A stretch of DNA of 64,000 nt from Pecten maximus (GCF_902652985.1 NC_047017.1:41788001-41852000), one strand, 5' to 3'; counted from the stretch's first letter, positions 19,687-47,000 are shown. Notes: a model not told the origin generated them from the sequence alone. Numbers and translations are program-made.

Positions 19687-19733
<47 letters not shown>

Positions 19734-22700
19734 GTATCTTATATAACTGTTAAAAGAACTTCATTTATGACCAGGATTTAATGAGGCAGGTGTAACAAAA
19801 CAAAGTTGGTTTACCAAATGGAAATGTATTAGTTTGATGTTAATGTTTAATCTGTAAATCAATATTAGACATTGGATCCGGAATATGCTATCAAGGTGAT
19901 GAAAAACCAAAAAAATCTTTTGTATTGTATGTTAAGATAAATTTAAACTGTTGGAAGAAAAGTATTTGAAATATTAAAATCAGTAGTACTTCGAGTACAA
20001 GATATTTCCAGTACACAATCAAACTCTACATTTTGAGAGACCACAAACAACTTGCCAAATAGTTTTTGTTTATTACCAATTTCTATTAATTTACGTGGCT
20101 TGTTAAAACTCTTCAAATCAAAGGAATGTTATCATACATTTTTCAACGAAGTGCCAGATCTATTCATTTTTATAAGGTTTACTAATAGAAAAAATATCTT
20201 ATATTAGATATTGTTAGTTAACCAACTAAAAATAAACCCACAAAATAATAAGATGATATACAAAGAAAAAATAGTAACACTTATCTTATTGTTACATGTT
20301 TAAGGAGTCTAAATGTATAAACGTATACATCTATCTATAAACATTATGTATATATGTACTTGGTTACAGGTACATGTGATACATATGGACCCAGGTAGGA
20401 TCCCAAGTTTACCTGGAGTCCAAACGGAGTGCACTCCAAGTCCAAACGGAGTGAACTCGGAGTGCACTTTGTGTAACCTTTAGTCTACACTCAACTGTAT
20501 GTACTACCATTGTTTAGTACTCCCACTACTTGTATAAAACTTATCAGTTATTTGTTTTTTTTTAAGATATGGCAGGAGTCTACTTACTGTAAAAACTAAA
20601 AGATCGGCAACTCGCCACAAGCGAAACTGCACCCCACCTCACTTCAATCGACTAAACAACACATTTATTCAAACTGACACGGCTCATATTGCATACGACC
20701 GTCATCAAGAAACATTTATCTTTAACCTACCGTGTCACTCGATGCGATTTGTTTACATCCAAAACACAAAAATTCGTAAAAACATCGCCGAAGTCGAGAG
20801 AGTGCCAACTCTTCAATCACATACATGTAAGCCTAGGCCTTTCATGCTTGAAAACTTAAAAGAAATGGGAAATGGATAAGCACGCTTTTGTCACAAAGTT
20901 TACATTTACATGATTTGTATCTCGTCAGTTTGCTGAAATCATGACAAAAAGAGAGAAAAGTATATCACAGATAAGACTGGCATCAGCTTACTTCAAATAA
21001 GTGAAGTAAAACATTTACCAACATGGCTTACCCCAGAACTCTTTATCTTTTTTTCCATAAATGATTACAAATATCATGCCGTCACATACGAAAATCATTC
21101 TTCAGACATGTTTATCTATTAAATAGTCGTTTGAACTGAGGCCTGCATCAAGTTTGAGTATTTTGTATACTTTTTATTGTTATTTTCATTTTGTTCATGT
21201 TAGGCCTCCCAATTATTTATGTAATTACATAAGTGCTTATTAAGTTGAATTGAAAATTGCCCAACAACTTGCACGTTATTTAGTAATTAGTGATCTATCT
21301 ACAATTTTTTTAAGGAGACCTTTTCAGCTGTGTTGTTGAAACAATGAGTCCCACAATGTTAAAGTAAGGCATCTCAAGACATTTTTAGATTCTTATAAAA
21401 ATGATATGAATTCTTATGTCTTTCCGTGATTATCAAAATATCAAGGATGAGTTATATTCTAAAGCATTTTATTTTCTTACTTATCATAGTATAAACTAAA
21501 TACAAAATGTATAATTGTGTCATTTATTGTCAACAACGTCAAAGAGTTAAGACTTGATAGAGTAATTTCCGTAATATTACTTATTTATGTAATTCCAATC
21601 TTTGTATATCACACAAAAATGCATCACACTAAAAAGGATGGAGGTCAAATTATCAAATAAAAAAGAACGAAAAAAATGTGTCATAGCAAATAAAATTAAT
21701 GGTTGCATAACGCTTATTTCCAAACTACAGTCAATGTTCAACCGGCTTAGAAAAATTAGTGAGGAATCTGGACAGGCTGGGGGAATGATGTCCTGAAGGA
21801 GGAATTCGGCGTTATTTCCACAGATGATTGTGTTTTGCATGTAAAATTTCGTATTGAGCGACACGGTAGGTTAATGGTGAATGTTTTGTGATGGCGATCG
21901 TATATAGCATGAGCCGTTTCAGTTTGAATATATGTGTTTTTAAGTCAATAGAAGTGAGGTGGGGGTACCATTTAGCTCGTGTCGGAATTGCCGACCTTGT
22001 AGTTTTCACAGTACACAGACCATTGCCATAGAAAATAAATAAACAAAAAAATTATATGCAAGAGTCTGTGCTCTCTACTAGGATTAACGCTAAGCATATG
22101 TGCATATGAGAGAGAAAAAGTAAACTGCGTTGTGTGTTTATAATTATACATAGAACAAATGTGTATGTATTGAAAGCCCCTTTACGCATAAATTATGGCA
22201 AACTACAAAAAATATGTCGCATGCGCTCGCTTCTTGTTAGTATCAATAGACAACTATATCAACAAGGTTTTTCTATTGCTAAGTAATACTAACCAAACGC
22301 ATGTAAATAGATTAAATGATAGAACACATCCTCGAAGGATGATATAATGTGAGAATCAATACTGTAGTTTTTTTTGTAAGAACAATTTAAACCAGAAAAC
22401 GCCCCACTGCTTACTTGGAATCTCTAATTCGGTACCCCACGTTTTATATGTTAACGAGCCACGGAAAATATGTCATACACGCGTGTGCAGATTGCTTTGT
22501 ATTAATGAATGGCGGATCAGACGTACTGGTTGCTGTCGCGAAAGGAAAGGAAGGATTGGGCATTATCACAACATCTGCGATTTCAGATTCAATGTCTATC
22601 TATTAAAAAAAACGTGAAAGGTCACAATGAATTGGTAGTGGATGGTTTCGGCATTTGATAAACAAACCCATGCTTCTATGTTTACATCTGCGGATGTAAC

Positions 22701-24880
22701 ACGGCGTGCACAAGATTTGTAAAGTTATATGTTTATTACATATTTTATCTATATTGTTGACGTAGCAGAGCAGATTTGACAGAAATCAAATTAAGGTAGC
22801 GGAGTATGAAGTTTAACTTCATAAAATTTTATATTAGCAAAAAAATAGCTAGCTCTTAAGTACTTTACAAGCACGGACATACTATTGCACCTTGTCCGGT
22901 CCCGGTGACGTACCTGTACTCTAGCGCGTGTTTGACGTGCGGACATTATATCATACCTTGTCCAGTCGCATTAACATACTCCAGAGCCTTTTGGACGTCG
23001 TCATCTTTAGTAACATCCAGCTTGATCACATGAAGCCGGTCCGACTGACGTGCCTGTAAAACTTTGGCCCCCGGACTTTCCTTGCTGAGGACCCCGGCAT
23101 ATACTGTATACCCCAAGTCGTATAGTCGCTTGGCAAGAATGTGACCAAATCCTAATTAACCAATATTGAGTTAAAAAAAATATAATTAGACATGAATGAC
23201 AATGCAAACTCACAATAACACATTAAAGACTATGCAAATAAAGAATTACACAAAATATACTGTCATTATCAATTATGGCTTTTTTCATCATTTGAACTAA
23301 CAATTTGCTTTTCTAATTGGTCAGATCAATTTTCATCATACACTAAAGAACGCCATAAGATATGTACATATATGTTTACGTTTGATGCCATGCGACATGT
23401 TCAATATGTTTACGTCATTGATTCCAGTTCCACACGTCGTTCACCATAAAAGTTTAGAACACATTGCAGAAAAACCTTACCCTCTAGATAAAACTGACAT
23501 AACTACCCTATATATTTCATTGACTCCAACTCTGTCACCCGAGTTATGAAGTGAGAAATGAAGCCGTTAAATACAAGACCTCAAGTAGATCTAATCATAA
23601 AATCATGTCACTCAATATAAACAGGTATATAACGCACTACATAGGAAGCCGAATATGTAATATGTAGGACATAATGTCATGTATTACATACATTTTAATG
23701 AAAGCCTGAAAGTAAAATCATATAATTCATATTCATGCCTAACATACTACGAGGTAGATAACAATATTGGACCCTGATTGTGAATAGGACGCTAAACCAA
23801 ATAAACCAAACCAAATAGATAAATGACGCCAACATACACCCTTTGTAGATATGACCGCCCTTACACACTTGATATGTATCCTACCCTATTACTACGTCAC
23901 GCTTGATATTATCTTACCCTATTACTACGTCACACTTGATCTGTATCCTACCCTATTACTACGTCACACTTGATCTGTATCCTACCCTATACTACGTCAC
24001 ACTTGATCTGTATTCTAGCCTACTACTACGTCACACTTGATCTGTATCCTACCCTATTACTACGTCATACTTGATATGTATCCTACCCTATTATTACGTC
24101 ACATTTGATGTGTATCCTACCCTATTACTACGTCACACCTGATCTGTATCCTACCCTTTTACTACGTCACACCTGATCTGTATCCTACCCTATTACTACG
24201 TCACACTTGATATGTATCCTACCCTATTACTACGTCACACCTGATCTGTATTACTACCCTATTACTACGTCACACTTGATCTGTATCTTACCCTATTACT
24301 ACGTCACACCTGATCTGTATCCTACCCTATTACTACGTCACACTTGATCTGTATCCTACCCTATTTCCACGTCACACTTGATCTGTATCCTACCCTATTA
24401 CTACGTCACACATGATCTGTATCCTACCCTATTACTACGTCACACTTGATCTGTATCCTATCCTATTACTACGTCAAACTCGATCTGTATCCTACCCTAT
24501 TACTACGTCACACTTGATCTGTATCCTACCCTATTACTACGTCATCACATATCTGTAGATTACGAGTAATGAAAAAAAACCTTGTTTTTTTGTATCGATG
24601 ACTATATAACAAACAGATGAAAACTGAAAACATTAACACTTCCAAGACGAGAAGCAAACTTCTGTGTTATTCGGATTCTGTGTACTGCCTTACCTGTATC
24701 ACAACCTGTGATGACTACGCCCTTTCTGCCGATGTCCAACTTCTTCCGGAAATTGTTTCTGGTCATTCTTAATGCAAAGTAGACCAGTGAAATGGCCAGC
24801 AAATATTTCCAGTAAATAAACAGAAAATATACATTCAGTAAAAGTAAATATAAAACGCATGTGTTCTCTAACGACAACAT
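15511..24880 (-). CDS. Short-chain dehydrogenase/reductase, SDR9C type (retinol dehydrogenase / 17-beta-HSD / BDH1-like), copy A, 353 aa, 6 exons
   Basis: Exons 24880-24694, 23151-22957, 16880-16728, 16517-16324, 16062-15820, 15600-15511 total 1062 nt, all GT-AG, open frame. Hydrophobic N-terminal anchor, TGCDTGFG cofactor motif, LDVT, VNNAG, catalytic S (NMSS), YSVTK, IIEPG. Confidence 0.92.
16940..20497. mobile_element. Non-autonomous Tc1/mariner-like element, 3.56 kb, in intron 2 of SDR A
   Basis: Perfect 27-bp TIR CAGTTGAGTGTAGACTAAAGGTTACAC extended to about 95 bp by GGAGTGCACTCC-containing repeats; TA on both flanks; no transposase ORF. Confidence 0.85.
18479..18856 (-). mobile_element. 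5'-truncated LINE (CR1/L2-like) 3' end
   Basis: Absent from the paralog (about 47000). 6-bp TSD TATAGA. Minus strand encodes EDETHFFIDCDFYSDL (C-terminal His/Cys motif of LINE ORF2), followed by AATAAA and a (TCTGAA)n tail. Confidence 0.8.
20568..22030. mobile_element. Old foldback/TIR element with about 230-bp diverged inverted repeats (paralog at about 48706-50409)
   Basis: 20568-20795 aligns with the reverse complement of 21805-22030 (shared CCCCACCTCACTTC, ATTCAAACTGA.ACGGCTCAT, TTAACCTACCGTGTC). Confidence 0.6.
23865..24545. repeat. 34-bp minisatellite (TATCCTACCCTATTACTACGTCACACTTGATCTG)n, about 20 copies, intron 1 of SDR A
   Basis: Tandem units visible; the same array is in intron 1 of copy C (63243-64000). 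Confidence 0.95.
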
Positions 24881-25213: not shown

Positions 25214-26438
25214 TGTCAAAAAGTTATGTTGTACTCTGCAAAATATTTGCCAGTTATCCAGTACTATGGAGTGGTAAGGTATAGTGTCCTATACAGTGAT
25301 CAGGGAATACACCTGTACTGTAGAGGGTACCTGAGTTCACTGAATAGAAAGTGCTGAGTCAGGGTCACTGAGGCGTAACCAAATCATGCAACACAGGTAA
25401 GTGCTACCTGTGTGTGCGGCCATTTCAACCCCAGACCTGGACCTGGAAGGTTCACGGATGTCAGAGGCTGTGTGCCAGGGGAGAAATGCCTAAGCTGTGT
25501 GCTTGGTAATGAAATGTTACCAGGGCTGTGTGCCCAAAGTTATTATCCAAGTTAGAGATAGTTGAAGCCACTACATGTAAGCTGTGTGCTAGTTTGGGCA
25601 AAACTTTGCTACTTGGAGAAGCTGTGTGCTATGTCCACCTCAATGGAGTGTGGGAGTCCTGGAATGAAACAGGAGAGTGAGCTGTGTGCTCAGAAATGCT
25701 AAAGAGAGACGCCAACAGTAAGTACATATTTATGTCATTAATGTAATTTTGGTAAAAATGTTTAGCATGCAAATTATAGGGTGTAATATTATAGGTCATT
25801 GTTGTAGAATAATTTCCTAACATAATGTAAAGAAATAGGAAATAGAGAGAAAAGTAATAGGAGATAGTGAGAAAGAGAATTATTAAATGTCATTGTAAGT
25901 AAAATACAAATATAATACAAATGTGCAAGTGCTATAAACCCATGAACTTAGAACATTGACTCTGTAACCTTGTAGGTGACCTTGGGACAGGGAGCCATTA
26001 GCCATAGAAGGGTCTATGTGCCAGACCATAGTGGGAGCAGCAGAATCCCTGGTCTATTTATGTGAAACCAGAAAGGAGATATTTGTGCTGGACTAGTACA
26101 GTGCCTACGGAGGGTATACATATATATACCGATTATGAAATAGTTAAACAACATCGGAGTGAAGAGAACTTTGGGAACCAACCACAGTGATGAACTATAT
26201 ATATTTGGGGTCTGGAGAGACAATGGGTTTCAGAGACGGGTTTTGTTTTGTGTTGCACATTATTAATTAATTGTAGAGAATGAGTGGGAGTGTGTAAGGG
26301 TGTTTTGTATGGTGTAAATATTGTTTTCCTATGATTTTGTAAATATGTTCAAGTGAATACATATGTTAATGTAATTTATGTTGTTGTCTCATCTGTTTGC
26401 AAATAATTAGGCTAAGCCTATACCCACAATTCTTGACA
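25214..26438 (+). repeat. 5' LTR (1225 bp)
   Basis: TGTCAAAAA...TTCTTGACA; by eye identical to the 3' LTR apart from 54 extra bp at 25253-25306. Confidence 0.95.
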
Positions 26439-26440
26439 TC

Positions 26441-26458
26441 TGGTGGCAGCGGTGGGAT
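26441..26458 (+). promoter_or_regulatory. Primer-binding site complementary to the tRNA-Leu 3' end
   Basis: TGGTGGCAGCGGTGGGAT, 2 nt after the LTR, is the reverse complement of ATCCCACCGCTGCCA-CCA, the 3' end of metazoan tRNA-Leu(AAG/TAG). Confidence 0.85.
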
Positions 26459-26554
26459 AGGCCTTGTAATTAAATCTATTGCAAAATTCAAAAAGCTGTA
26501 ATTACTGCAGACAGGTATTTCAACATTAAGGCTAAATTATACATACACATCATT

Positions 26555-29500
26555 ATGGATGTTATAGAATTGGCAAAGTTGGTTGAGATAGGAAAGAGTT
26601 TAGGATTAGCAGGTGAAGATTTGCAGGTATATGTAGATAAGAAAGAGAAAGAAAAGCTTGAGAGAGATGAACGAGCTGAGGCCAGAGATATGAAGTATAA
26701 GATGGATGGGTTACAGATGGAGTTAGAGATTGAAAGATTGCGAAGGGAGGAGGGTTTAAGGAACCCAGTTGAGCAGGTAGGGAGCTCAAAGGCTTGAATT
26801 CCAAAGTTACCTCCCTTTGACGACACAAAAGATAACATTGATGCATATTTACAACGGTTCGAGAGATTTGCGGGAGCAGTTAAGTGGGACAGACAGGATT
26901 GGGCCATACATCTTAGTGCACTTCTTAAAGGTAAGGCGTTAGAGGTATACTCTCGGTTATCAGGTGAGGAAGCTGGGTTGTATGAAAACCTTAAGAATGC
27001 TCTACTTAAGAGATTTCAGATGTCGGAGGAAGGGTTTCGGCAAAAATTTCGTACCTGTAAGCCTGAGGTAGGTGAAACATCTGCTCAATTTGTAGTCAGA
27101 ATAGGTAACTATTTGGACAGATGGATAGACATGTCCAATACTGACCATACGTTTGAAACTCTGAGAGATTTACTGTTACAGGAGCAATTTGTAAATGCTA
27201 GTCATAAAAATTTAGCTCTATTTCTGAAGGAAAGGAATCAAAAGGATTCTACAGAGATGGCAAAACTGGCGGACCAATATCTAGAAGCGCATAATGGAGT
27301 GGACTTAGCATCATTTGGTAAGCCCAAAGGAAGTAAAGCTCCATATCGAGAAGGAAATCATAATGCAGTTCCAAGCTTCAGTGATTCTGAAAAGGAAGCA
27401 TTCAAAAAGGAGCGAAGGTGCTATTCATGTGGAGGTAAGGGTCACATAGCTAGGGAATGTAAATCCAAACGTGCACAGACCACAGCTGCTATGATAGAGC
27501 AGGCTAGTGAAAACCAATCTGGGTGTAGTTGTTCTCATACAAAAGATTCAGAGGAAAGAAAGCAAGGTAAGCAGAAAGGGGGAAAACACTATCAGAAATC
27601 AAGGGAGACGGCTGCTGCTTGTTCAGTACCATTACCTAGTGACTTATTTGAGTGTTGTACCCAGGAGTCTGAAGTAGTCCTAAAGTGTGGTCATCATTTA
27701 CCCATCGTTAGCGCTGCCTGTGGCAACTCTAGAGTGCAGTTAAATGTTAATAACGGGTTACCTGTAGCTATTGGATATATTGGAGAAGTGGAAGTGTCAG
27801 TTCTTAGAGATACGGGATGTAGTGGCATTGTGGTGAAACGAAATTTGGTAAGTGAACAACAGTTAACATCAAAGGTCGTGACCTGTGTACTTATAGATGG
27901 AACGGTGAGAAAAGTGCCAGTGGCAAAGATCGTGGTAGACACACCATATTTTAAAGGGGAAACTGATGTGCTGTGTTTTGAAAACCCAATATATGATCTA
28001 ATAATAGGAAATATTCCTGGGGTGAGAGAACCTGAGCACCAGATGGAGACCCCCAACACAGAAGCAAATAAGTGGGAGGAGAGGAAAACGGAGGTCAAGC
28101 AGGATAGTACAATATTAGTGCAAGCTGTGGAAACTAGAGCTCAAATAAAGAAGGTAGGGATAAAACCAACAGCACTCAAAGTACCTTGTGTTAGTGGAAC
28201 AGACATTGGGAAAGAGGAATTTAAGAAAATTCAAAACGAGGACGATTCCTTACAGCACCTGAAGGATTTTTCTAGAAAAGGGGGTAAGAGGAAAATAGGG
28301 AAATACAATTATGCTTGGTTTGTTGTAGAGAGGGATCTCTTAAAACGGAAATTCCAGTCCGAGAAAACAGATCATGGTAAGATTATAACCCAGTTAGTGG
28401 TGCCTAAGAAACTTAGACAATCAGTGATGGAAATTGGTCATAGATCCACATTGGCAGGTCACTTAGGAGCTAAAAAGACAACAGAAAAGATCTTAACACA
28501 GTTTTATTGGCCAGGATTTCACCAGGATGTGAAACTATTCTGCAGATCCTGCGACCTATGCCAGAAGACATTTCCGAAGGGTAGGGTGACTAGAGTACCT
28601 ATGACAGCTATGCCGTTGATTGACGAACCATTTCGTAGAGTGGCGGTGGATATTGTGGGCCCTATTCATCCAATGACAGAACGGAAACATAGATTCATTC
28701 TTACACTGGTGGATTTTGCGACCCGATATCCGGAAGCTGTACCATTGCAGACTATTGATACCGAACAGGTGGCTGAAGCTTTAGTTCAGATATTTTCTCG
28801 AGTTGGTGTTCCTCATGAGATACTATCAGATCAGGGATCTCAATTTACCTCTGGTGTGATGAAGGAAGTTGGAAGACCTTTGTCCATGAAGCAAATAACA
28901 ACTACTCCTTACCACCCTCAGTGTAATGGACTTGTGGAGCGCTTCAACGGTACCTTGAAGTCTATGTTGAAGAAAATCTGTGTAGAGAAACCAAATGATT
29001 GGGACAGATACCTGGGAGCAGTTCTTTTCGCGTACAGGGAAGCCCCTCAGGATTATATGGGTTTCTCTCCCTTTGAACTATTATATGGACGGACAGTCAG
29101 AGGTCCAATGTCTATACTGCGTGAACTGTGGACAAAGGAGGTAGAACCACCAGAAGTACAGACAACATATCAATATGTGCTAAATCTACGGAACATTCTA
29201 GAGGAAACCTGTGACATAGCCCAGAAAGAACTCAGAAAATCTCAAGTACGACACAAACACCACTTTGACAGAAAAGCAAGGGACAGAGGATTTAAAGAAA
29301 GAGATCAAGTACTGATTCTGTTACCTACAGACAACAATAAGTTGTTGATGCAGTGGAAGGGTCCTTTTGAGGTCAAGGAGGCTATTGGACAGAACAACTA
29401 TCGTATACAGATAAAAGGTAAGGTGAAGGTCTACCATGCCAACATGCTGAAAAAATACTTAACAGATGTCAGGGAGGTAAGAAAACCAGTTGGTTGTATG

Positions 29501-30233
29501 GAGATAGTCGGAGCAGCTGTCATTTCAGAAGACGAGGATGAGGATGTCGCCTTGACAAATGAATCCGAGATACCATTACCAGGATTACAAGCAAAAGAGA
29601 GTATCAGTGATGTTAAGGTTGCCCAAGACCTAGATGACAAACAACAGAGTGAGGTAAGATATATTCTTCAGGAACACTCAAAGGTGTTAACAGACCTACC
29701 AGGAAACTGTAAGATAGGGGAACATGTTATCAAGTTGACAACCGATGAGCCAATCAGATCCAAGCCGTATCCAGTTCCGCATGCGATGAGGGAGACGGTA
29801 AGTAAAGAAGTCAAAACAATGTTGGAGATGGGAGTCATTGAGCCGTCGACGTCGCCCTATGCATCGTCCGTCGTGTTGGTCAAGAAACCTGACAATACTA
29901 ATAGGTTTTGTATAGATTACAGACGCCTTAATACAGTAACTGTTTTTGATGCAGAGCCTATGCCTGACCCAGAGGAAATTTTCTCAAAAATCTCCATGAG
30001 CAAGTTCTTTACGAAAATTGATCTTAGCAATGCCATATCTGTACGGACGTACATTTGTGTTGCAGACAGACCACCAGCCACTGGTGTTTATGAACAAAGC
30101 AAAACTACTGAATTCAAGGATCATGCGTTGGACCTTGTTATTACAGGACTACCAATTCAGGATTGAGGCTATCCACGGTAGAGATAATGTAGGTGCAGAC
30201 TACCTAAGTCGACTGCCAGAGGTAAGTCAGTAA
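26555..30233 (+). pseudogene. Gag-Pol polyprotein (Gag-PR-IN-RT/RH) with an in-frame stop and an RT/RNase H deletion
   Basis: ORFs at 26555 and 26978 share a frame and are separated by one TGA at 26795 (KA*IPKLPPFD). At about 30030 RT motif FTKIDLS is fused out of frame to the RNase H tail PYLYGRTFVLQTDHQPL...NVGADYLSR; the YxDD motif is missing. Confidence 0.9.
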
Positions 30234-30367
30234 ATTAGATATCAGATCTACAGAAACAGGGAAGGTGAGTAGTAGACAATCATTGCTGTATATATATGAG
30301 ATTGTTTCCAGTTAACTTTTTAGTATTATGGATTAAAAAGTAAGTATTTTTATCCTAAGTTGGGGGA

Positions 30368-31538
30368 TGTCAAAAAGTTATGTTGTACTCTGCAAAATAT
30401 TTGCCAATACACCTGTACTGTAGAGGGTACCTGAGTTCACTGAATAGAAAGTGCTGAGTCAGGGTCACTGAGGCGTAACCAAATCATGCAACACAGGTAA
30501 GTGCTACCTGTGTGTGCGGCCATTTCAACCCCAGACCTGGACCTGGAAGGTTCACGGATGTCAGAGGCTGTGTGCCAGGGGAGAAATGCCTAAGCTGTGT
30601 GCTTGGTAATGAAATGTTACCAGGGCTGTGTGCCCAAAGTTATTATCCAAGTTAGAGATAGTTGAAGCCACTACATGTAAGCTGTGTGCTAGTTTGGGCA
30701 AAACTTTGCTACTTGGAGAAGCTGTGTGCTATGTCCACCTCAATGGAGTGTGGGAGTCCTGGAATGAAACAGGAGAGTGAGCTGTGTGCTCAGAAATGCT
30801 AAAGAGAGACGCCAACAGTAAGTACATATTTATGTCATTAATGTAATTTTGGTAAAAATGTTTAGCATGCAAATTATAGGGTGTAATATTATAGGTCATT
30901 GTTGTAGAATAATTTCCTAACATAATGTAAAGAAATAGGAAATAGAGAGAAAAGTAATAGGAGATAGTGAGAAAGAGAATTATTAAATGTCATTGTAAGT
31001 AAAATACAAATATAATACAAATGTGCAAGTGCTATAAACCCATGAACTTAGAACATTGACTCTGTAACCTTGTAGGTGACCTTGGGACAGGGAGCCATTA
31101 GCCATAGAAGGGTCTATGTGCCAGACCATAGTGGGAGCAGCAGAATCCCTGGTCTATTTATGTGAAACCAGAAAGGAGATATTTGTGCTGGACTAGTACA
31201 GTGCCTACGGAGGGTATACATATATATACCGATTATGAAATAGTTAAACAACATCGGAGTGAAGAGAACTTTGGGAACCAACCACAGTGATGAACTATAT
31301 ATATTTGGGGTCTGGAGAGACAATGGGTTTCAGAGACGGGTTTTGTTTTGTGTTGCACATTATTAATTAATTGTAGAGAATGAGTGGGAGTGTGTAAGGG
31401 TGTTTTGTATGGTGTAAATATTGTTTTCCTATGATTTTGTAAATATGTTCAAGTGAATACATATGTTAATGTAATTTATGTTGTTGTCTCATCTGTTTGC
31501 AAATAATTAGGCTAAGCCTATACCCACAATTCTTGACA
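30368..31538 (+). repeat. 3' LTR (1171 bp)
   Basis: Direct repeat of the 5' LTR at an offset of 5100 after the 54-bp indel. Confidence 0.95.
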
Positions 31539-34790: not shown

Positions 34791-35412
34791 TCGTAATGTA
34801 TAGGGATACTAAGCTAATCATCAGTCAGATCAATGGATAATAGGTAATCATCTTTCTGGATAAGATCAAGAACCACATGATAATAAAGATATAACAATAT
34901 GATACATTTAAATGTTTAAAGGTTATTGGAAAAAATGTACTCATTTGACCTGTGGCTTTGATGTCAGTGTCACAATATTCTAATGGCGATGCATTGCACT
35001 TTGGTGTTAGGTCATGAAAATGTACAGCAATTTTGATTAAGATATCTTGCTTTAGAATATATAGCCCTGCCAAGAAAGCATTAGAAGAACCGGTACTATT
35101 ATGATAAGTTTCCCTTTGTTTAAATGGGAGACAAAATGACTGAGAATGATTGCTGTATTGCCAAGAATATGCAAGGGTCGCCTTGACTTGTTCAAACAAC
35201 TGTGCAATTTTCAAGACCACACAGTTAAGCTTCTCTCTGTTCTTTATTATATAATTAACTTGCCAAATTTTGATGTTTCCATATTTTTGATCAACACGGT
35301 TGCATTTTTATTTAGTGAACGATCTTGTTTTCTTGATTACAAGTATCTTTTCATCACCACTTCCAGAAGACCATATCTGTTTGAGTATGGTTAATTTTGT
35401 TTAACGTCATAT

Positions 35413-37433
35413 TGTAACAGAATAGGCCTGTTGCCTGTGGTTTCTGTGAGCACCGACTCGATCAGCTGATCGGGTCGAGATGACCCAGTTTTGTTTACAA
35501 TGCGGTTTTGAAGTATTTGTAATTAAATAACAGCACGGGAGTGTCGTGGCTGTTTTAATATATTCATATTGGATTGTAAATGCTGAGATTATTGTTTCCA
35601 TAAGGGATTGTTATATTTACGGTAATTTAGTCAAAGTATGAGAGTGGGAAAAGTAATGTACGAGTGCATCACGTGTCGATCTTGTATTGACGAGCTGACA
35701 AATTGTTATTATTCGCCAATTTATAAGCAATGTCTTAGGTAAACAGATGCATTTACGAACCTTTGGGTTGCATATTTGTAAGAGATATTGCCGATTCCAT
35801 TGTCGGACTGATATGTTGTTCGCTGTGGTTGGTCGCGGCAGCCCTCGTTCGCCTGCATGGCGCTTTCAACTTGTCTAGTGTCACAATGGAGTCGGCGTGA
35901 CGTCATATTTATTCAGCAAAGCCTTGTAAATGTTATTTAAAGTAAATAATGTTAGTAAATAATAGGTTTATGATAAGGGATGATTTTTATATCGGATTCC
36001 GTTCAATGTCAATGATTTATTATGTGTATTTTATAGCGTTTAGAAGGAACTCTATTATAGTTCCTTCGCGTAGGGGCTCGGGTGTGACATAGACAGACCG
36101 AGGCTCTCAGCCAATCAGCTGGCGGCCTAGCCTCGCCCGAGGCCCGAAGGTTATAAATAGGGGTGAGCACAGCTGCTTCAACATCTCTGTTTCACCGGTA
36201 CCAGAGCGTATCGTTGCGCCAACAGCAAAGTTAGTATAAGCTTATTAGGATAGGTTAGACCAGACACTCAAACGTTTTAAGAGTGCGGCTCTTAGCCTCT
36301 TTGAGTTGTCTTATAGGTTAGCTTATAGTTTCAGGTTTAGCAAGATACTCATAAGCTTTAAGAGTACGGCTCTTAGCCTCTTTGAGTCTAAGTTCTTATA
36401 TTAATATTGTATCTCTAGTAGGTTAGGTCAGACACTCAAACGTTTCAAGAGTGCGGCTCTTAGCCTCTTTGAGTGGTCTTATAGGTTATCTTATATTTTT
36501 AGTAGGTTTAGCAAGATACTCACAAGCTTTAAGAGTACGGCTCTTGGCTCTATGAGTAGTCTTTAAGTTCTTATATTGTTGTACATGTATTTCTAGTAGA
36601 TTAAGTCAGGTCAGACACTCAAACGTTTAAAGAGTGCGGCTCTTAGCCTCTTTGAGTGATCTACTAGTTTATATTGTCTTAAGTATTTATAGTAGGTTAG
36701 GTCGGATACTCAAATGTTTCAAGAGTATGGCTCTTAGCCTCTTTGAGTTGTCCTATTAGTTGTTCTCTTAATATCTAGTAACTTTAGCAGTTAGCATTTA
36801 GACACTCAAACATTTTAAGAGTGTGGCTCTTAGCCTCTTTGAGTGGTCTTTATTCCCATTGTTTAGTAATGTTTCAGATTAGGTTATTAGAACTATATTA
36901 GTCAGTAATGGTGATAGTTTAGTAGTTTCATAGATGGGTTGTCTCCCTTTGATTAGTCAAGTATAACGGCAAGTCATATTCCTCAAGTATTACACTTTAT
37001 TAGATTCTCACTGTCAACAACATTGTTACATTTGTATTTGAAATGAAATGTATTGCTGTAATATGCATTTCTGAGGTTATCTTTGGTGAGCAGATTACTC
37101 AGGGTTAAATATTATCTTGGAATATTAGAATGAGCATGGTGTGGAAGGTATATGTATATAAGTGAGATATTCCATTTGTTATTTGTATCTGTAATTTAAA
37201 CACATGTTGTGATTTTCTCAGTTGTATAATACATTGTTGAACTTGTACTGTTGGCTTGAGTCTTGTATTCTTCTTAGTCGTCTCCAGAGAAGCAATAGTT
37301 TGGACTTCTAGTCCAAACCCACGTATTAAATATAAATCAGCGAAAGACAGAATCTGTGACTTGGGTGCTGGGTACGGCCTCACGCTACCAAGAAACACTG
37401 CTATATACCACCCCAGGGCCGGATTTTGTCACA
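35413..37433 (+). mobile_element. Solo LTR (2021 bp), probably Gypsy, containing a 7-unit hairpin array
   Basis: Termini TGTAACAGAAT / ATTTTGTCACA (imperfect inverted repeat), 4-bp TSD ATAT (35409-35412 and 37434-37437), CCAAT at 36111 and TATAAATA at 36152; no coding capacity. Confidence 0.8.
36262..36849 (+). repeat. Array of seven ~48-nt self-complementary repeats separated by variable spacers
   Basis: Units start at 36262, 36343, 36430, 36514, 36613, 36704 and 36800; consensus AGAYACTCAAA.gtttt.AAGAGTRYGGCTCTTAGCCTCTTTGAGT. Confidence 0.9.
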
Positions 37434-37741
37434 ATATCAACAGCCAGGGTCATTACAGGACGTGCCTGGTTTTGGAGGTGGAGGAAAGCCGGGGTATCCG
37501 GAGAAATATCATCGACCTACGATCAGTACCAAGCAACTGCCCCACACAGGTTTCGATCTCGCAGGAGGGCAAATGATACAGTGTCGGACCGCCGCGGCCC
37601 CTCTGACTGTGAGGCCAATGTTGTATGGAAGTATAAATTGAATCTTTCCTAACTTTCAACCGAATAGAATATATATTTGAGTATGAATCCACTTGTGAAA
37701 TCAGTTCACTTATTAACATTGTCAGAAATACTTCTGGGACG

Positions 37742-38197
37742 TCAACGGGTAAACGATCCACATCCGGTCATCTTCTCAACGATCCAATCCGAAATAAATT
37801 CGGGGAGAATTTTATAAACTTTAGCAAGAATCTGTAAAGATAATGCCATGTGGATTAGGAACCTCTTACATACAAAGTGTAGTTTTCTGTAAATCATACA
37901 ACATTGCAATAAACAGCCTGAAATTTAGGATGATGCATAACTTTTATGGTGTATTTCTATTCTGTTTATGAGAAATTGTATGGAATTGACCTACGATTTA
38001 AACATGTTATATTGACTGGTAATTTGGAAAGTCATTGATGGCGTTAATATCTCACCGCTAGCTTATCCACGACAGAGAAGGAGCCACCGATCATATAGCG
38101 GGCCTTTGGTGTTAATAAGGGAGTCCTCTATAGCGTTAATTACTGGATCTGCTGACATGGTCCCTATCATACTTGTATCGTTCTTCTTCATCATTTG
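37742..38197 (-). pseudogene. SDR pseudogene fragment D (3' part of exon 5 plus exon 6)
   Basis: Exon 6 at 37831-37742 (ILAKVYKILPEFISDWIVEKMTGCGSFTR*). Exon 5 remnant at 38197-38056 has a 5-bp frameshifting deletion (GTAAC) and ends abruptly at the 60-bp satellite. Confidence 0.88.
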
Positions 38198-39225
38198 TTA
38201 CGTTTGAGGTAGTCAATATATCTGTGTTGTAGGACTATCTGTAGCATCTGTGATGAGGACATTTTTTTTTACGTATAGGTAGTCAATGTGTCTGTGTTTT
38301 AGGACAACCTGTAACATCTGTGATGAGGACATGTTTTACGTATAGGTATTCAATATGTCTGTGTTTTAGGACAACCTGTAACATCTGTGATGAAGACATT
38401 TTTTACGTTTAGGTAGTCAATATATCTGTGTTTTAGGACAACCTGAAACATCTGTGATGAGGACATTTTTTTTAAGTTTGAGGTAGTCAATATGTCTGTG
38501 TGTTAGGACCACCTGTAACATCTGTGATGAGGACATTTTTTACGTTTAGGTAGTCAATATATCTGTTTTAGGCCAATCTGAAACATCTGTGATGAGGACA
38601 TTTTTTACGTTAAGGTAGTCAATATATCTGTGTTGTAGGACTATGTGTAGCATCTGTGATGAGGACATTTTTTAAGTTGAGATAGTCAACATATTCTGTT
38701 GTAGAACTTTCTGTAGCATCTGTGATGAGGACATTTTTTAAGTTGAGATAGTCAACATATCCTGTTGTTGGACTATCTGTAGCATCTGTGATGAGGACAT
38801 TTTTTACGTATAGGCAGTCAACATATCCTGTTGTTGGACTATCTGTAGCATCTGTGATGAGGACATTTTTTAAGTTGAGATAGTCAACATATCCTGTTGT
38901 TGGACTATCTGTAACATCTGTGATGAGGACATTTTTTACGTATAGGCAGTCAACATATCCTGTTGTTGGACTATCTGTAACATCTGTGATGAGGACATTT
39001 TTTAAGTTGAGATAGTCAACATATCCTGTTGTTGGACTATCTGTAGCATCTGTGATGAGGACATTTTTTACGTATAGGCAGTCAACATATCCTGTTGTTG
39101 GACTATCTGTAACATCTGTGATAAGGACATTTTTACGTTGAGATAGTCAATATATCCTATTGTTGGACTATCTGTAACATCTGTGATGAGGACATTTTTA
39201 CGTTTAGGTAGTCAATGTATCTGAC
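38198..39225. repeat. About 60-bp minisatellite, about 17 copies; left boundary of duplication copy 2
   Basis: Same unit as 8420-8890, with an expanded variant (AACATATCCTGTTGTTGGACTATCTGTA). Confidence 0.92.
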
Positions 39226-41514
39226 TTTTAACAAACTATCATGATTTAATGCAGATGTACTGGTTATGAGATGAGGACGGGTTTTTTTTTTATGTCCGGT
39301 CTGTTTATCTGTGATTTAAGACATCATTTAACAAGTTTATGTGATAAAGAACATCCTTTACGTCCAAGCTGTTTATCTTTGGTTTGTGACAACCTGTAAC
39401 ATATGTATGTGATAAAATACATCATGTATGTCCAGACCGAAACTTTTATCTGTGATTTAGGACAACCTGTAACATTGGTATGTAGTAGAGGTTGATGAGA
39501 ATAGTATAAAACATCTAATCACAACAATATATAACCCCCTTATCGGTATTTGATGTCATTATTACAATTATAACAATATATCTGACTTGTTGTTAGATGT
39601 GTTTTTCAGTTGCTATTTATTTATTTTGATTACATAGAACCTGACTTTTGGTGTGTTTAGAAATTCTTTTTCGAAATTAAGAAAAAATGCTGATTATATG
39701 TTTATCTCCTTTCTAGGACAAACTTATAAGTAAGAATTGTGATAAGCCTATATACACCTTTAACACTTCAGTAGGCGATTTATAACACTTGTTACTGAAA
39801 AGTGAAAGGATACAAGGTATGCTGTGATATATTATTCTATTCCAAAAAAAGTGAAATTTCACGTCGTGAAATATTTACTGAACAGCTCCTGTCAGAGCCT
39901 CAAAATACAGCAAATTTGCTACATCGTAAGAGATAATACCCTGTGATAAGGAAATCATACCTTCAAAAAATGCACAGAGTCGCATCGAAGTTTACAAATA
40001 AAAAGAAATGTGATAATTTTCGTGTTTTGGAATTGCGTTTTTAGCTCAGATTTTATATCCGTATCCGTATATAATGCAAGTCGCATTATTTCAATACTGA
40101 TAATTTAAGAAGATTGTTATTGCGTGTATGACTAAGGGACATTTTTCCTGGCATGCTAGTTATCATATCTATGTAATGCCTCATGTATTTATCTGTGATA
40201 TCTGATAAATGGTGAGTAATTAGATGTTGGATCTATTTTGTTGCTTTGGTGGTATAAAAACACTGTATTTCAATTTGTATTTGTATTTAATTTTTGTGTT
40301 ACCTTCCCTTCGTTTCCGATGTCTTGATGTAGCGTTTTGTCGTCATTGTTGTATGCCGAGAATAGTGAGCTGTCGTTATGCTATACATGTAATATAATAT
40401 TTAAGTAATATTCTAACATTTTCCACATTCTATGGATTATTTACGGTTTTCGTTCATACTTTCTTCTTTATCAAAAGACTGTTTTCCGCAAGATAGGAAT
40501 CGAATGTTGTGAGTGCTTAAAGGGATATTCCTTTGTTTGGACATCAGAATCATACAAAATTTCAATTGATGAAATCTATGTCCGACGATGATTAGATGGA
40601 TGATTGTGCCTACAAATAATGAAATACTCACCGAAATATACAGGAAAAAGACGTATCGTATACAAATACCGTTTGTCTTTGCTGTAATAAGCGATGCTTT
40701 GGGTTGAATTAGGAATTTCCAGGACTTAATACTCGAAAAACTTTGGTTTACCTTTAGAGTAAACCTGCCGTATTAATGTAAAGATTGATACTTTTACTAC
40801 TTGCAAAAAATAATATCTTCCATTAAGTTTAATTTTGACTACCTAAACTTTATACAAACGAAGAAATGCCCCTTTAGATATCGTTAAGAATGGGATTACA
40901 TAAAACGACATTCGTCATGGTAATTTGAGTCGAAATCGAATTATATCTCGTTATCAAAGTGAAAACAGGGGTTGTGGAAACGAAATCATAAAACGCTCTA
41001 AAAGAATAAATTTATTTATATAAAACAATATCACATGGAAATACATCATAATACAGATCATGACGATTTCTCATAGTCATTATCAACTTGTATTTCTCGA
41101 AATCTGTATGCTAGCCAACCGGTATTAAATTTGAAACAAATAATAACCGAAAGCAAGCATTTATATCAAAATGAACTGCAACATAAAACTTCTACAGTTT
41201 GAGAAAGTGGCGAAAGTACTACTAAGAATGTGAATATCAACAACAACGAATTGGCAATCATGACACACTCACAAAGTGGTAAGCGACTATATTGTCAATT
41301 CTCTTGGTGTGAATAACGTCTGTAACGGCCAGTAATACCTAACACGCATTGACAAACTAAATACATAATAAACGTCTTTATCGAAAACAAGCTATTCTGT
41401 AAATAGTATGGAGAAAGGTCACATGGCCACGTTCTCCGGACACGTATATTTGTTGCGATAGCTTACGATAATCAAGCTAGAATATAGCCAGGTCTAAGGT
41501 TATGTAACACTTAA

Positions 41515-42136
41515 TATTATACCTTTCCCTATTTTACACTTTGTAAAAAGTAGACAATAGAAATATTATTTGAACCAAATCCTCCAAAAGCGCTATTAAC
41601 CAGGTTAATAGTCCAAAGTGCTATTTACCCGGAGGGGCGCATTCATATTTCGCGTTTTTTTTTTTGCTTTGGTATTCTGATTGGACAATGCATAAACGTT
41701 TTCGAGACCAAGAAGAAGCAGACACAGTTTGTTTACTGAAATCGTAGGAGGGAATGCTACAGGAACATTTCGGAGAATGGCTTCATCTACAAGTTTTGAT
41801 AATCTGGATGAAGAAGTGCTGGAGAGGATTTTTTCTGAAAAAGACAGCGCTAGCACAAAACAAGTAATAAAAACGGCAGTTAGCATGCTAAAAGACTATC
41901 TTCGGAAAAAAAAGCATTAGGAATAGTGGAGGATATGAACACTGGTTCGAGAGAAAAAATGGAATGCTTTAAATGAGGTATAATAAAACAGTTATTGTAT
42001 GGGTATTTCAGCAAATAGCACTTTTATTGCCCCCCATTGACATTAACTATTTCCCTCGGCTTCGCCTCGGAAAATAGTTCATGTCTCGGAGGACATTAAA
42101 GTGCTATTTCCTTCACACCCATACAATAACTGTATA
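41515..42136 (+). mobile_element. Single non-autonomous Crypton-like element
   Basis: Paralog of 11611-12280, with mini-ORF MASSTSFDNLDEEVLERIFSEKDSASTKQVIKTAVSMLKDYL and the terminal hairpin. Confidence 0.6.
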
Positions 42137-43179
42137 GTTACCAGATATTACAATACTACCGATTATTGTCCTTATTCTAACTAAGACTACATAATATAGT
42201 TACCAGGTATATCAATACCAACTACCGATTATTGCCCTTGTTTACCAACAAACACTGGCGGAATTGTCCAAGTTGTAGCTAAGGTTAAATAGAATAATTA
42301 CCAGGAGTAGCAATACTAACCAGCAGTCATTGCCGTAGTAGTAAGGTTCCATAACATAGTTACCAGGTAAAGCAATACGTACTAACAATATTGTATTAGT
42401 TATAACTGCTATTATATAAAATAGTTACCAGATGTAGCAATATTAACTAGCGGTGATTGGTTTGGCTTGGTTTAATATAATCTAACGTCTTATCAACTTT
42501 CCTGTGTGTGAAAAAAACCCAGACAATTATCATTATTATTATTACTTTGTCCTTTCTAAGATTACAATATACAAAAAATATAACCCGGTAGATATTAGAA
42601 TCTTCTATTATAGAAACTTGTGACGGGCGTCGTGAAACCTTACACCGGCGGATTTACACTGCGCAGAATGTTAAATGTTTATAGTCATGTTCTGATTATA
42701 TAAAACATCTAAATGACATTTAAGTGTTTAACGATGTCACAATATTACCTCTTTTTCATGAATCCATAATTAAATCTACAAAAATAGCACTCAAAGACAC
42801 ACAATCACGATTTTTTTTAACATCCAGGCTTCATTTTTATAACACTTTGGATCGAAAATAGCGGTTCGGTAAATACCAAGATAACGAACGAAAAGTTCCT
42901 CTTAATACGCACATTCCGTATCGTATTTTTACAAACAATGCCGCCTTGTTCTAAATACATGTAGGTTACTTGAAGCGATCGAATAATGTAGCGAAGTGTT
43001 AATGTGTCATCAATTAAGTGTGAATTAGTGATTGGACTGTTACAATGGGATATTTAAAAGCTAAAATGTAAGTACACATCGTTGTCATCAAATTTAGAGT
43101 TGCGCTGTATTAAAATAGGTTCGGTCGCTAAAGGTCGGTTGGCGTCAGAGACCTTTAGCTAGCTGAAGTAGGAAAAGGG

Positions 43180-43925
43180 GTGCTCCAGTACACAAGACTT
43201 ATTCGGGAGGAAACGTTAAGTCATCTGGGCGTGTTGGAAGTTCAAGTCCAACTCAACAATCCACACAAGTGTTTAGACTTGTTAATAGTTAAACATGGTG
43301 GTCTATCATTGCTTGGAAGGGGTTGGTTTCGCAGTACCAAACTGGACTGGGACAGTGTTAAGATGATCATGGTTTTGAGTGGTTCTAAACCCTCAACAGC
43401 TCGAGAAATACTTAGAGGTTTTCAAAGACGAGCTAGGCACCTTGAAAGATATCAAGCACAGATAAAGGTCAAAGAGGACGCTCACCCAAAATTCTGCAAT
43501 GCACCTACTGGTTCCTTTCGCAATAAAAGAAAAAGCTGACAGGGAGCTGAACTGACTTGTCAAAACAGGTATTTCGACTACTATTTAACGGCCTAAGCTA
43601 TACAACAGCACACGCATTTGTTGTAATTTAAAGGTCACAATCAATCAAGTTCTTAATATCGACCAAAACCTAACTACCAAATATCGATGAAATCTTCGCG
43701 ACACTGGTTGCTGGTCAATATTTTACGAAGATCAACCTGAAAAACACATATCTACAAAGGATAGTGCGTGAGGCTGGCCGACTATACCGGACATAGCATC
43801 GGCTCCTGGGATACCGATATCTTAGTCCTACAAGGTGTACCACGTGTTTAATGCTTCTTAGACGACATGATCGGCACGACAGATGAAGAACATGTGGTAA
43901 AATTAGAGAGAATACTTCAATTGTT
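43180..43925 (+). pseudogene. Decayed Ty3/Gypsy pol remnant
   Basis: Uninterrupted paralog of 13235-15405. Confidence 0.8.
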
Positions 43926-44031
43926 ACATTCCAGTCCATGTTTCCGCCGAGTGTTGTATCGTTACATTACAGTCCATGGTCATCTTCTCAACCATTAACA
44001 TCCGGTCATCTTCTAAATGATCCACATCCGG

Positions 44032-47000
44032 TCATCTTCTCAACGATCCACATCCGGTCATTTTCTCAACGATCCAGTCCGAAATAAATTCAGGAAGAAG
44101 GTAATAGACTTTAGCAAGAACCTGTAAGGGTGATGCAAATGAATTAGGAATCACACAGAATCAATCATATGACATTGCAATATAGTTTTGCTATGACGTT
44201 GATTTGGCATCTCGATTGTGCTTATGAGGAGCCTCATGTGTAGTTGTGAAAAAATACCATAAGCCTCGTACTTGTTATGTTAAATATGTTAAGTTAGCAA
44301 GTCAGTTGTAGTGAGACAATGAATGGTGTTAAAACCTTACCGCTAGCTTGTCCACGACAGAGAAGGATCCCCCGATCATATAGCGGGCCTTTGGTGTTAC
44401 GTTAATAAGGGAATCCTCTATAGCGTTAATAACCGAATCTGCTGACATGGTCTGGATCATACTTGGCTCTTTCTTCTTCATCATTTGGTAGATATCATCA
44501 AAGTATGGACGACCGTAGGTCTGTCTGACGTCATCAGATGCTTGTTCCCACATGTAGTCTATCTCCTTCTTTAATCGTTTCAGCTGTTTAATATGGGAAT
44601 GTTACATTTTGCGTTCCTACGTATATTAATTTTTGAAATTATTTAAAAGATATAAAATATTTGACATCATTTACGTCACCTGTGGATTACGTTACATTTT
44701 TTTTGGTTATATAAATTTATATATATATAATACTTTGTTTAGATATTTATACATATCTGATAAACTTTGCATTGAGAATCAGAATGCTTGGTATAAATAT
44801 AGGTTTTGGTAATGAAATCAATTAAAACAGGTTTATATAATGCTAAACAAACGAGGTCACCTGTTCTGGGCCACATACAGATGTGGCTGCACTAAATTGT
44901 CCAGGTTCAATAATTGAGACGTTGACACCAAACTTCTTCATTTCAAGTCTGAGGGAGTCACTCAGGGTCTCTATACCATATTTGGTAACACTGTACACGG
45001 ATCCACTGGGCCAGGAAAACCGACCCCTCACGCTAGACATGTTAACAATCCGGCCTGGAAACAGAAAATTAGATTACATACTGTTAATCACGGGGAATGT
45101 GAAATAAGCCTACATTTGCAGACGCTCATTAATTGCAGGACCTAGCTGTTTATCCGTAAAATCGTTTCTATGTAAATGTATTACTCTGTCTCTATTCTAA
45201 CATAAAGACACTGACTTGACGCATATTTGTCTGGGTTTTTTTTCTAATCATAAGAAAATACTTACCTCTAGACTTCCTGATAAGAGGGAGGAATGCCTTG
45301 GTGACTCGGATCATTCCGTATAGATTAACCTCAGCACATTTCTTGTATTGATCCACAGTCGCTAACTCGACGTCACCGGGAAAATACATTCCTGCGTTGT
45401 TGACAATAGCCCACAATCCTGAATAAAATACCCGAATAAAATAATTTAGTAATATAACTGTATATATTTACTACCTACAGTTGAGTGTAGACTAAAGGTT
45501 ACACCCAAGTGCACTCCGAGTGCACTCCATTTGGACTTGGATTGCACTCCGTTTGGACTCCATGTAAACTTGGAGTGCACTCCAAGTGGACTCCGAGTCT
45601 ACCTGGAGTCCTATAAGATACCATGTCTACCTCAGTTCTATAATCAGACTATATCATACATGTATTAATACTTTGATGCTTTTAATATAATTTACATATA
45701 TAAATATATTTTTACCAATTACTTTTGTTCTGTTAATATTACTATTCACATTTGTTAATACATGGTAATAATGCCTACATTTTAAATTTATATTTATCAA
45801 GATCCATAAAAGACAGTTATACAATTTATGCCATAATCAGGTTTCTATGAAAGTTAATTGCTTATTATTTCATATTTTATTAATGTGTAAGTAAATTGTA
45901 TTTCATTCTATTCAGGAATTGAAAATTATTTCAATTAGAATATTTATTACTGTACATATATCATGACTGTAAAGGAAGTTTAGATAATGTATCTATATTA
46001 TGTTATTGATTATTCAAAATATTGAAAATTAACAGTATTTAATGAATTATGTGTTTTTTTATAAGACATTCTCTACATATATGTACTCAGTTAGGCAAGT
46101 AATTATATAGATCATTAGAAAAATATACATTTACAACTGTACATATTTACGAGCATTACCTGGTTAAATTAATGTTCTGACATAATGTACACATAAGTAT
46201 GTAGTTCCGGACTACCCATAATGAATGACAGTATCTGTTTATTTGCTATTGTTATTGGTCATGCATGACTGACTCTGGCCTGACACACCTGAGACCTGTG
46301 CCTGGTGAGTTTTAGGAGCCAGCTGGGTTCACAGAAATACCTATGTCAATTTTGTCAATGTATGGCTTCAAATGATGAAGCTGTGCAAAGCAGGGTGTGT
46401 TATGACCTCAGGCCAATTAACAGAACAGTAAGATTATTTCCTGACTTGAAGAAAAGGATTGTAGCTCTCCATCTGAGAGGCCTTAATCAGACCAAAATTA
46501 CATGTATAAACGAAATACCAGTGTAATTAGGTGGAAATGTAAAGATAAGCTGTAAAACCATTAACAAATTGGTTAACAGGTTTAAGGAGACCAACTCTAT
46601 TGAAATGAAGTCATTCTATACTGAAATTAGAAAGTAAAAATAAGCTGTTTCTTATTAGATTGTAACCTGTCTAAACCGCAAGTCATTGAGACCAAACGTA
46701 TTGGCCGGTTTCTGCAGGTGTCTGGTATGTAGAGGTACAATGTTGAATGATATAAGTTCAGAAAAAATTAATGCAAATCAAATTAAGAAATGATGCAGTT
46801 CTTATCTTGTTATATTCAAAAATATAAAGACATTGATTTAAAAATTTATTGTAAAGAAAGAGATTAAAGTAAAAAAAAAAAAAAAATTTCAGTGTTATTC
46901 CAAATGGTATAATGAATGCAAATTCACCATTTCCCCAAATCAACCTATAGCCTTATACCCGTAATTAGTACACATTGTTCTCGTCCAGGAAATAAGATTA

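Follow-up and report, generated by a model that had tools for sequence, protein, structure and literature searches.

The window, a 64-kb stretch of Pecten maximus DNA, contains a solo LTR of a low-copy, decayed Gypsy family, and the evidence supports a family-level, selected, multimerised element downstream of its promoter, present in the window copy as seven tandem units. The element is real and probably functional. We tentatively explain this conserved multi-copy element, at slightly under even confidence, as a putative protein-binding site made up of RNA hairpins lined up in the predicted 5' leader. Its most likely partner would be the zinc-finger protein encoded by ORF3, a reading frame of related elements whose role as a regulator is hypothetical.

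The solo LTR and its array

The LTR occupies positions 35413 to 37433 on the plus strand (2,021 bp, TGTAACA...TGTCACA). The initial annotation had regarded it as a solo LTR, and this was confirmed by its TG...CA termini together with the short target-site duplication, ATAT, on both sides (35409 to 35412 on the left, 37434 to 37437 on the right), the features by which a Ty3/Gypsy solo LTR is recognised. ATAT is likewise found at both ends of the C10 and C17 copies of the LTR family. Relatives are followed by a tRNA-Leu-type PBS, and the Ty3/Gypsy order, PBS and then RT-RNaseH-integrase, was found among family members, with the coding remnant at one rearranged locus (L086). This solo copy is inert as a mobile element. 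When joined, its two flanks make up the tail of a SINE-like repeat present in many copies (window 35370-35412 and 37434-37540); other copies of this repeat yield very deep RNA contigs with a summed depth of 20,000-50,000; the same repeat is also inserted in several LTR copies of the family.

The promoter region was delineated on the plus strand from sequence and promoter alignments. A U3 motif, CAGCTGATCG, at 35463 to 35472 is common to sister-lineage LTRs, with at most one mismatch in the window, C16a, C12, C8 and C1 LTRs, and is absent from the outgroup C6 LTR and from the Gmr1-like LTR of the window. A small inverted repeat, AAGGAAC/GTTCCTT (36044 to 36066), lies about 100 nt 5' of the TATA box, and the word GGAACT occurs at a comparable position in sister LTRs. 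It is followed by a CCAAT box (36111 to 36115) kept between the two subfamilies of the family, by the TATA box TATAAATA (36152 to 36159) and, about 30 nt 3' of the latter, by a conserved block (36182 to 36201) at the predicted transcription start.

The whole array extends from 36231 to 36860 on the plus strand. Both the TATA box at 36152 and the seven tandem units described in the initial annotation were found again, and the first unit begins 110 nt 3' of the TATA box. Units 1 (36262 to 36311), 3 (36430 to 36479) and 5 (36613 to 36662) are of an odd type, while unit 2 (36343 to 36392), which has lost the base stem, and unit 4 (36514 to 36562), with a 1-nt deletion, are of an even type. Unit 6 (36704 to 36753) has a G-C pair at the stem base and, in its orthologues, T-A or T-G at columns 15-35; unit 7 lies at 36800 to 36849. 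The cores measure 49-50 nt, the start-to-start distances are 81, 87, 84, 99, 91 and 96 nt, and the spacers of 31-50 nt are T-rich and end in a TAGG-rich word. TAG occurs 33 times across the array as compared with 12 expected, and ATG is depleted (4 vs 12 expected); the TAG-over-CTA bias (33 vs 8) is clear only in the array of the window.

The inner stem AAGAG/CTCTT, with its variable loops (TGCGG, TACGG, TATGG and TGTGG), is present in 7/7 units as previously described, and so is the matching of YACTC with GAGTR; the AGA/TCT to GGA/TCC change at the stem base of unit 6 was also recovered. The outer stem ACTCAAA/TTTGAGT, which had been ascribed to each unit, is exact in five of the seven, with a T-T mismatch in unit 2 and a C-A mismatch in unit 4. 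Similarly, the GGCT-CTT-AGCC hairpin is found in six units and not in unit 4 with its deletion. The repeat is indeed better conserved than the spacers, with a mean identity of 84% for the cores and 59% for the spacers (paralogues 1-6). Because shuffled spacers reach 49% identity, as against a mean of 59% for the real ones (up to 82%), the spacers are diverged relatives of one another and not unique sequence. A CRISPR-like repeat/spacer array, for which unrelated spacers would be expected, was rejected on these figures.

Other features of the window include a young Gmr1-like element at 25306-31538 (LTR start approximate), whose 1,133-bp repeats are 100% identical. It has a tRNA-Leu-type PBS and a 1,122-aa ORF that encodes SCAN, zinc knuckle and integrase and precedes RT pieces. 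Positions 8436-22859 and 38787-51267 form a segmental duplication with 91-97% identity. A 66-69-bp satellite at 38192-39220 and 8436-8895 carries TGATGAG and, in some copies, GAAAC, words which we take to be reminiscent of a hammerhead core, as a candidate likeness.

Conservation of the unit within the LTR family

The DNA search of the 918-Mb genome gave 42 matches to the LTR family, which is a lower bound (30 candidates were scored). Copies of the close subfamily are 74-95% identical to the window LTR, and those of the distant subfamily 65-75% in patches; most are solo or broken LTRs, and three are followed by a tRNA-Leu-type PBS. A genome-wide search with the unit pattern returned 34 matches vs 2 for the reversed control, and a second pattern search 28 vs 0, in both cases all in loci of this family. 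The pattern had two isolated matches in viral contigs, located in gene-dense sequence and without the remainder of the unit, and none in metagenome contigs, so that these searches yielded no family copy from a second species. The number of units per copy ranges from 1 to 13. Since the three closest copies have five or six, the window copy has gained units.

Several loci of the family are rearranged. Six amplified 47-nt half-units without the 5' arm lie at L070:6040-6295, with one more at about 5545-5610. At L087-L088 (G000:C17:27158099-27176729) a family solo LTR is split by about 17 kb that include a nested Gypsy, the gag of which has helix-hairpin-helix and weak PNMA matches. The Gypsy coding region at this C17 locus was rejected as the parent of the family; it belongs to the nested element with its own 293-bp repeats.

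Selection on the unit was assessed by comparing identities between the two subfamilies with those within the old, decayed distant one, on an alignment of 48 units out of 64, the 16 excluded being half-units, partial or rich in indels. The unit core is 0.716 identical between subfamilies vs 0.741 within the distant subfamily, although many distant copies were recovered via the array itself, so that the apparent conservation of the array is inflated. The three stem-forming blocks show no divergence beyond decay (0.79, 0.76 and 0.75 between subfamilies vs 0.75, 0.71 and 0.79 within the distant one), while divergence is seen in the 9-nt segment at columns 21-29 (0.50 between vs 0.72 within) and at the 3' edge of the spacer (0.29 vs 0.60). 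As for the remaining LTR, U3 and the downstream part are 0.62 and 0.60 identical between subfamilies, compared with 0.56 and 0.57 for shuffled sequence and, among copies of the distant subfamily, 0.76 and 0.74. For the promoter block the value is 0.71-0.74. The unit is thus held about as tightly as the core promoter between subfamilies, and the fact that both are kept while the remaining LTR barely exceeds shuffled identity points to selection. The family-wide units and this conservation between subfamilies bear out the earlier proposal of a multimerised element carried by a retrotransposon family. Among orthologous close copies, change amounts to 8.5% in cores, 10.8% in spacers and 8.6% elsewhere, and such decay of cores as fast as the remainder is the expected pattern of neutral decay after insertion. 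Five copies that were found through other LTR parts (L073, L080 and L161-L163) have no array and lost it within larger deletions.

Alternatively, the array might be a neutral LTR minisatellite seeded by a quasi-palindrome, in which RT slippage alters the copy number and template switching keeps the arms alike. The variable copy number of 1-13, the amplified half-units of L070 that lack the 5' arm, the four sister lineages without an array and an ascertainment that favours the unit are all consistent with it. However, homogenisation acts inside an array and cannot account for a unit that stays similar across two subfamilies that are otherwise saturated, and structured arrays, unrelated in sequence, occupy the same post-TATA interval in four lineages. 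We therefore regard a neutral minisatellite as quite improbable.

Folding and transcription of the array

The thermodynamic signal of the units is modest. Single-unit z-scores range from -3.1 to +0.07, with 5/7 units below -2, and the whole array gave z = -2.18 (20 shuffles). In fixed 70-nt sliding windows the array (mean z -0.37 vs -1.05 for U3) is not more structured, and the antisense strands fold as well as the sense strands. By the nearest-neighbour model, a long hairpin of -8.5 to -14.7 kcal/mol is available to 6/7 window units, as compared with +1.6 to -7.7 kcal/mol for a two-hairpin fold. The two-hairpin fold is hence less stable in 6/7 units by 3-10 kcal/mol, in most cases by 3-8 kcal/mol, and only in unit 2 are the two comparable. 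The initial annotation had offered two mutually exclusive folds as a possible bistable switch; because the long hairpin is the more stable in 6/7 window units, a balanced switch is not supported.

Covariation across family copies, on which the structural claim was to be judged, is thin and not above the phylogenetic background. In the long hairpin 83% of the cells are paired, and its covariation score was reached by 75/500 shuffles (9/500 in a one-column variant). The two-hairpin fold has 89% of its cells paired, and its score was reached by 0/500 shuffles. The covariation signal comes from pairs 12-61 and 15-35, which trace to 2-3 events, as the earlier caveat about a single event had anticipated, and both pairs rank below non-pairing phylogenetic correlates in mutual information. 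At 15-35, the unit-6 orthologues show both U-G and U-A. Fixed differences between the subfamilies leave every pair of the two-hairpin fold intact but disrupt two end pairs of the long hairpin. Counted over cells that are not independent, G-U exceeds A-C by 43 vs 23 in the two-hairpin fold and by 31 vs 20 (p 0.16) in the long hairpin. RNAalifold returned no consensus structure for the family units, and a third fold, pairing AAGAG with the second CTCTT, was discarded with a covariation not above shuffles. Unpaired positions of the unit are conserved too. Heat-shock-element, NK-2-site and splice-acceptor readings of the unit were dropped because key bases differ between the subfamilies.

The two-hairpin fold exposes an 11-nt loop, which includes AACGTT where the unit is of the odd type and AAGCTT where it is even or belongs to a distant copy. 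This raises the question of dimerisation or packaging signals, i.e. self-complementary hexamers available for kissing-loop pairing, together with Gag binding, on the pattern of the HIV-1 DIS, MMTV SL4 or Ty3 PAL6. A perfect loop hexamer is present in 13/25 close and 8/23 distant units (21/48) vs 9% of background 11-mers, and in a post hoc estimate the chance of regaining it after 4 random changes is 0.06-0.07 (octamer 0.02-0.04). GATATC or GGTACC also occurs in some loops of the sister lineage C7. Nevertheless, there are just two independent loop states, and the hexamer, sought as the apical-loop mark of a retroviral DIS, is exposed only in the less stable fold. The palindromes are A/U-rich and energetically weak (loop duplex -3.5 to -5.3 kcal/mol vs -7.7 to -10.9 kcal/mol for known DIS words), so the GC-rich palindrome of a retroviral DIS or kissing-loop hairpin was rejected as a match. 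Moreover, the homodimer energy gain of the units is no better than that of shuffles (z 0.0-0.75), and the loops of the sister lineages C16b and L280 have no self-complementary hexamer. Dimerisation signals are, in our judgement, improbable.

Small-RNA precursors, also suggested initially, or ribozymes are very improbable indeed. The repeated structured units of constant length do resemble retrozyme arrays and retroviral miRNA cassettes. On the other hand, the database check named beforehand, Rfam over the LTR, gave 0 matches at E<=10, and Rfam over the arrays of three related loci gave none at E<=1, with 3 sub-threshold miRNA matches outside the array. The hairpin comprises only 16 pairs with a large internal loop, the unit lacks the hammerhead core words, and the sister arrays have no common sequence core.

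The placement of the array within a transcript is predicted from the TATA box and would put its beginning about 80 nt after the transcript start. RNA contigs (a small share in 3/23 listed runs) from five runs gave sparse, low-depth, unstranded pieces scattered along the LTR (U3, array and 3' end); one of them crosses from the LTR into the flank. Being unstranded and covering U3 as well as the array, these contigs neither show nor exclude transcription of the array. A GT..AG joint in RNA contigs (35609 to 36419) was rejected as splicing, as it represents a genomic deletion copy.

Sister lineages, ORF3 and known systems

The rearranged locus L086 consists of an LTR end, a PBS, pieces of RT, RNaseH and integrase, and again an LTR end; the region where ORF3 would sit is filled with SINE copies, and a purine tract there was rejected as a PPT, being a SINE end. 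In an RT search 150 matches were scored, and the surroundings of the 10 top loci were taken. In a tree of 40 rows the RT-RH remnant nests, on a long branch and with support 95/95, among seven other lineages. By this nesting, and with the remnant linked to the window LTR through one rearranged locus, the window family appears to belong to an ORF3-bearing, tRNA-Leu, long-LTR Gypsy clade of 8 lineages. The sister lineages have long LTRs (1.5-2.1 kb where complete), the same PBS and shared short U3 motifs. A pol protein of one sister gave 52 pattern matches in metagenome contigs, with 0 confirmed.

Sister families hold better-supported sense-strand hairpin arrays at the same LTR position. Tandem hairpin arrays lie about 130-230 nt after the TATA box in three of the seven sister lineages, at L226:5812-6464 (C7), L235:3435-3990 (C16b) and L280:2690-3190, with no sequence match to the window unit and no shared sequence core. 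They fold more stably than the array of the window, and TAG-rich words often stand in front of a unit. In C7 there are 6-8 double-hairpin units, with z between -3.6 and -5.6 for 5/6 of them. In its alignment of 33/49 units (near-duplicates and shifted rows were left out), the two adjacent hairpins comprise 19 pairs, in which 95.4% of the cells are paired and a single pair has changed on both sides; 30/500 shuffles reached the covariation score. C16b has 4.8 triple-hairpin units of 114 nt each (z -5.6), and L280 has 4 double-hairpin units of 112 nt, found by motif (z -3.1 to -7.0). The C1 lineage has one 79-nt repeat pair and no tandem array. One to three short GTG-TYAY-CAC hairpins were observed after the TATA box in the C16a, C12 and C8 LTRs (L228, L237 and L245).

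These sister arrays bear on whether the element acts as RNA or as DNA. In the latter case, inverted sites, with GAGTG/CACTC three times per unit, would be bound by a dimeric zinc-finger protein and the hairpins would be a by-product of the palindromes. The binder would be ORF3, in the role of a foamy-virus Tas or of an anti-silencing factor, or else a protein of the host, for which the gypsy insulator is the precedent. The C2H2 fingers and acidic linker of ORF3 suit a DNA-binding activator, and DNA is the usual target of C2H2 fingers. Concerted changes of the YACTC/GAGTR word affect up to three places per unit, for which no RNA is needed; the conserved unpaired positions and the equal folding of both strands agree with this as well. 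By contrast, the C7 array retains sense-strand pairing: G-U exceeds A-C by 27 vs 5 cells, and the seven variant pair types present in at least three loci comprise 4 G-U, 1 compensatory, 0 A-C and 2 loop-closing mismatches. In addition, fixed-length 50-65-nt units with variable loops suit a fold better than short sites. Taken as a whole, action at the DNA level, whether through ORF3 or through a host factor, is rather doubtful.

ORF3 follows pol, intact or broken, in 7/7 sister lineages (e.g. L229:2999-4024, L244:5947-6984 and L234:6023-7063 of G000). In most lineages it has two C2H2-like fingers, from which a linker, acidic or proline-rich, leads to the conserved C-terminal domain; the finger residues differ between families. 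The C-terminal domain is widespread, with 351 clusters at E<=0.001 and 163 at E<1e-10. A finger motif in the first 200 residues was found in 53/73 long homologues, and two motifs in 39. The best homologue is from bay scallop, and the named homologues are 'uncharacterized' bivalve proteins, with annotated examples in Argopecten irradians and Mercenaria mercenaria. The model of the whole ORF3 is poor (pLDDT 42), as opposed to a confident one for the C-terminal domain (pLDDT 86). The domain has no Pfam family, no Foldseek match at E<=0.001, a best Z of 3.5 with no clear match in VIA structural comparison a best E of 0.12 against PDB sequences and no match in Atlas. Judged on the predicted model, this lack of a clear match does not establish a new fold. 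ORF3 was not found beside LTRs of the window's family, in which no intact copy was found, and it is present in the C16a/C10a, C12, C8 and C1 lineages, which have no tandem array. In a more distant family (L270, L271 and L274) the ORF3 domain closes a frame of 590-730 aa, and a different tRNA-Leu-type PBS is used; no array was seen in its LTR.

Under the favoured RNA reading, the array would be transcribed from the LTR promoter, lie in the predicted leader about 80 nt past the start and act as RNA rather than DNA. The window family would once have had ORF3, and its binding to the array would bring about more transcription or export of genomic RNA, in a Tat/TAR- or Rev/CERV-like manner. On this view, the array sequence of each family would have evolved in step with the finger residues of that family. 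Among candidate partners ORF3 comes first because it is element-encoded, its nucleic-acid-binding fingers vary by family, and it would explain the family-specific sequence of the array. The array and ORF3 are linked by co-occurrence within the clade, and RNA binding by such an element-encoded activator is putative. In its widest form, a complex-retrovirus-style circuit would run through this bivalve Gypsy clade: ORF3 would recognise family-specific leader RNA hairpins, and arrays and fingers would be re-invented together in each family as a natural library of orthogonal RNA-protein pairs. We consider this extension unlikely at present.

Retroviruses offer well-known examples of structured cis-elements and accessory regulators, but few are known from Gypsy elements. 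Tat binds HIV-1 TAR, which is single and starts at +1. The window family resembles this pair in having a structured element in the predicted transcribed part of the LTR and a candidate partner that combines a zinc-binding region with an acidic or proline-rich segment. It differs in its 1-13 tandem units, which would start from about +80 in a Gypsy element, and in a candidate partner of C2H2 type without a known domain, the binding of which is putative. Short DNA sites bound by zinc-finger proteins or viral activators are exemplified by the Drosophila gypsy Su(Hw) insulator and the HTLV-1 21-bp repeats. Conserved cores, A/T-rich spacers and variable copy number are shared with these, whereas units of 50-114 nt, nested stems and the sense-strand G-U bias of one sister family are not.

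According to the available sections of the published work, the TAR and poly(A) hairpins of HIV-1 are structured elements in the R region of the LTR (PMC10730233), and conservation of stem-loops in long R regions has been noted (PMC3601003). The clearest case of an accessory regulator in Gypsy elements, among the literature compared, is CERV of the C. elegans element Cer1 (PMC10309623). As described there, this extra nuclear regulator is required for genomic-RNA export, is made from a spliced mRNA, and has a G-like domain and a C4-type zinc-binding loop proposed for RNA binding. Like CERV, ORF3 is an extra frame of a Gypsy element with a predicted zinc-binding part; unlike it, ORF3 lies after pol and has C2H2-like fingers. 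The bifurcated SL4 of MMTV (PMC8096270) and PAL6 of Ty3 (PMC11381356), in the portions available, are single, GC-rich and outside the LTR. They share with the window units a closing stem that carries two hairpins, of which one has a self-complementary loop; the window units, however, are multiple, A/U-rich and part of the LTR, and expose this loop in a fold other than the most stable one. LTRs with an RNA-like module are also known from the Helenus, Ajax and Cassandra TRIMs, of which animal Helenus has a 4-bp target duplication as here (PMC10886601, in the text available). Membership in this group was rejected: Rfam and ARAGORN detected no tRNA or 5S sequence (ARAGORN found no tRNA in the window), the LTR is 2 kb long with a TATA promoter, and the parent is of the autonomous type. 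No such array or ORF appears in the accessible parts of two mollusc transposon surveys (PMC6238403, PMC10294476) and of the LTR-structure study (PMC3601003). Likewise, full-text literature searches gave no description of these arrays or of ORF3, a scope outside which lie Repbase, subscription papers and supplements that may annotate the families.

The leader array, its analogues in three sister lineages and the widespread, unannotated zinc-finger ORF together suggest a testable regulator-target pair in mollusc retrotransposons. Even if the pairing of array and ORF3 fails, the ORF3 domain, with 163 clusters, a confident model and no clear fold match, is a lead of its own. Binding of the arrays by ORF3 as RNA, if true, would reveal how Gypsy elements acquire control of the Tat or Rev kind, and ORF3 would then found a new family of RNA-recognition proteins with two fingers.
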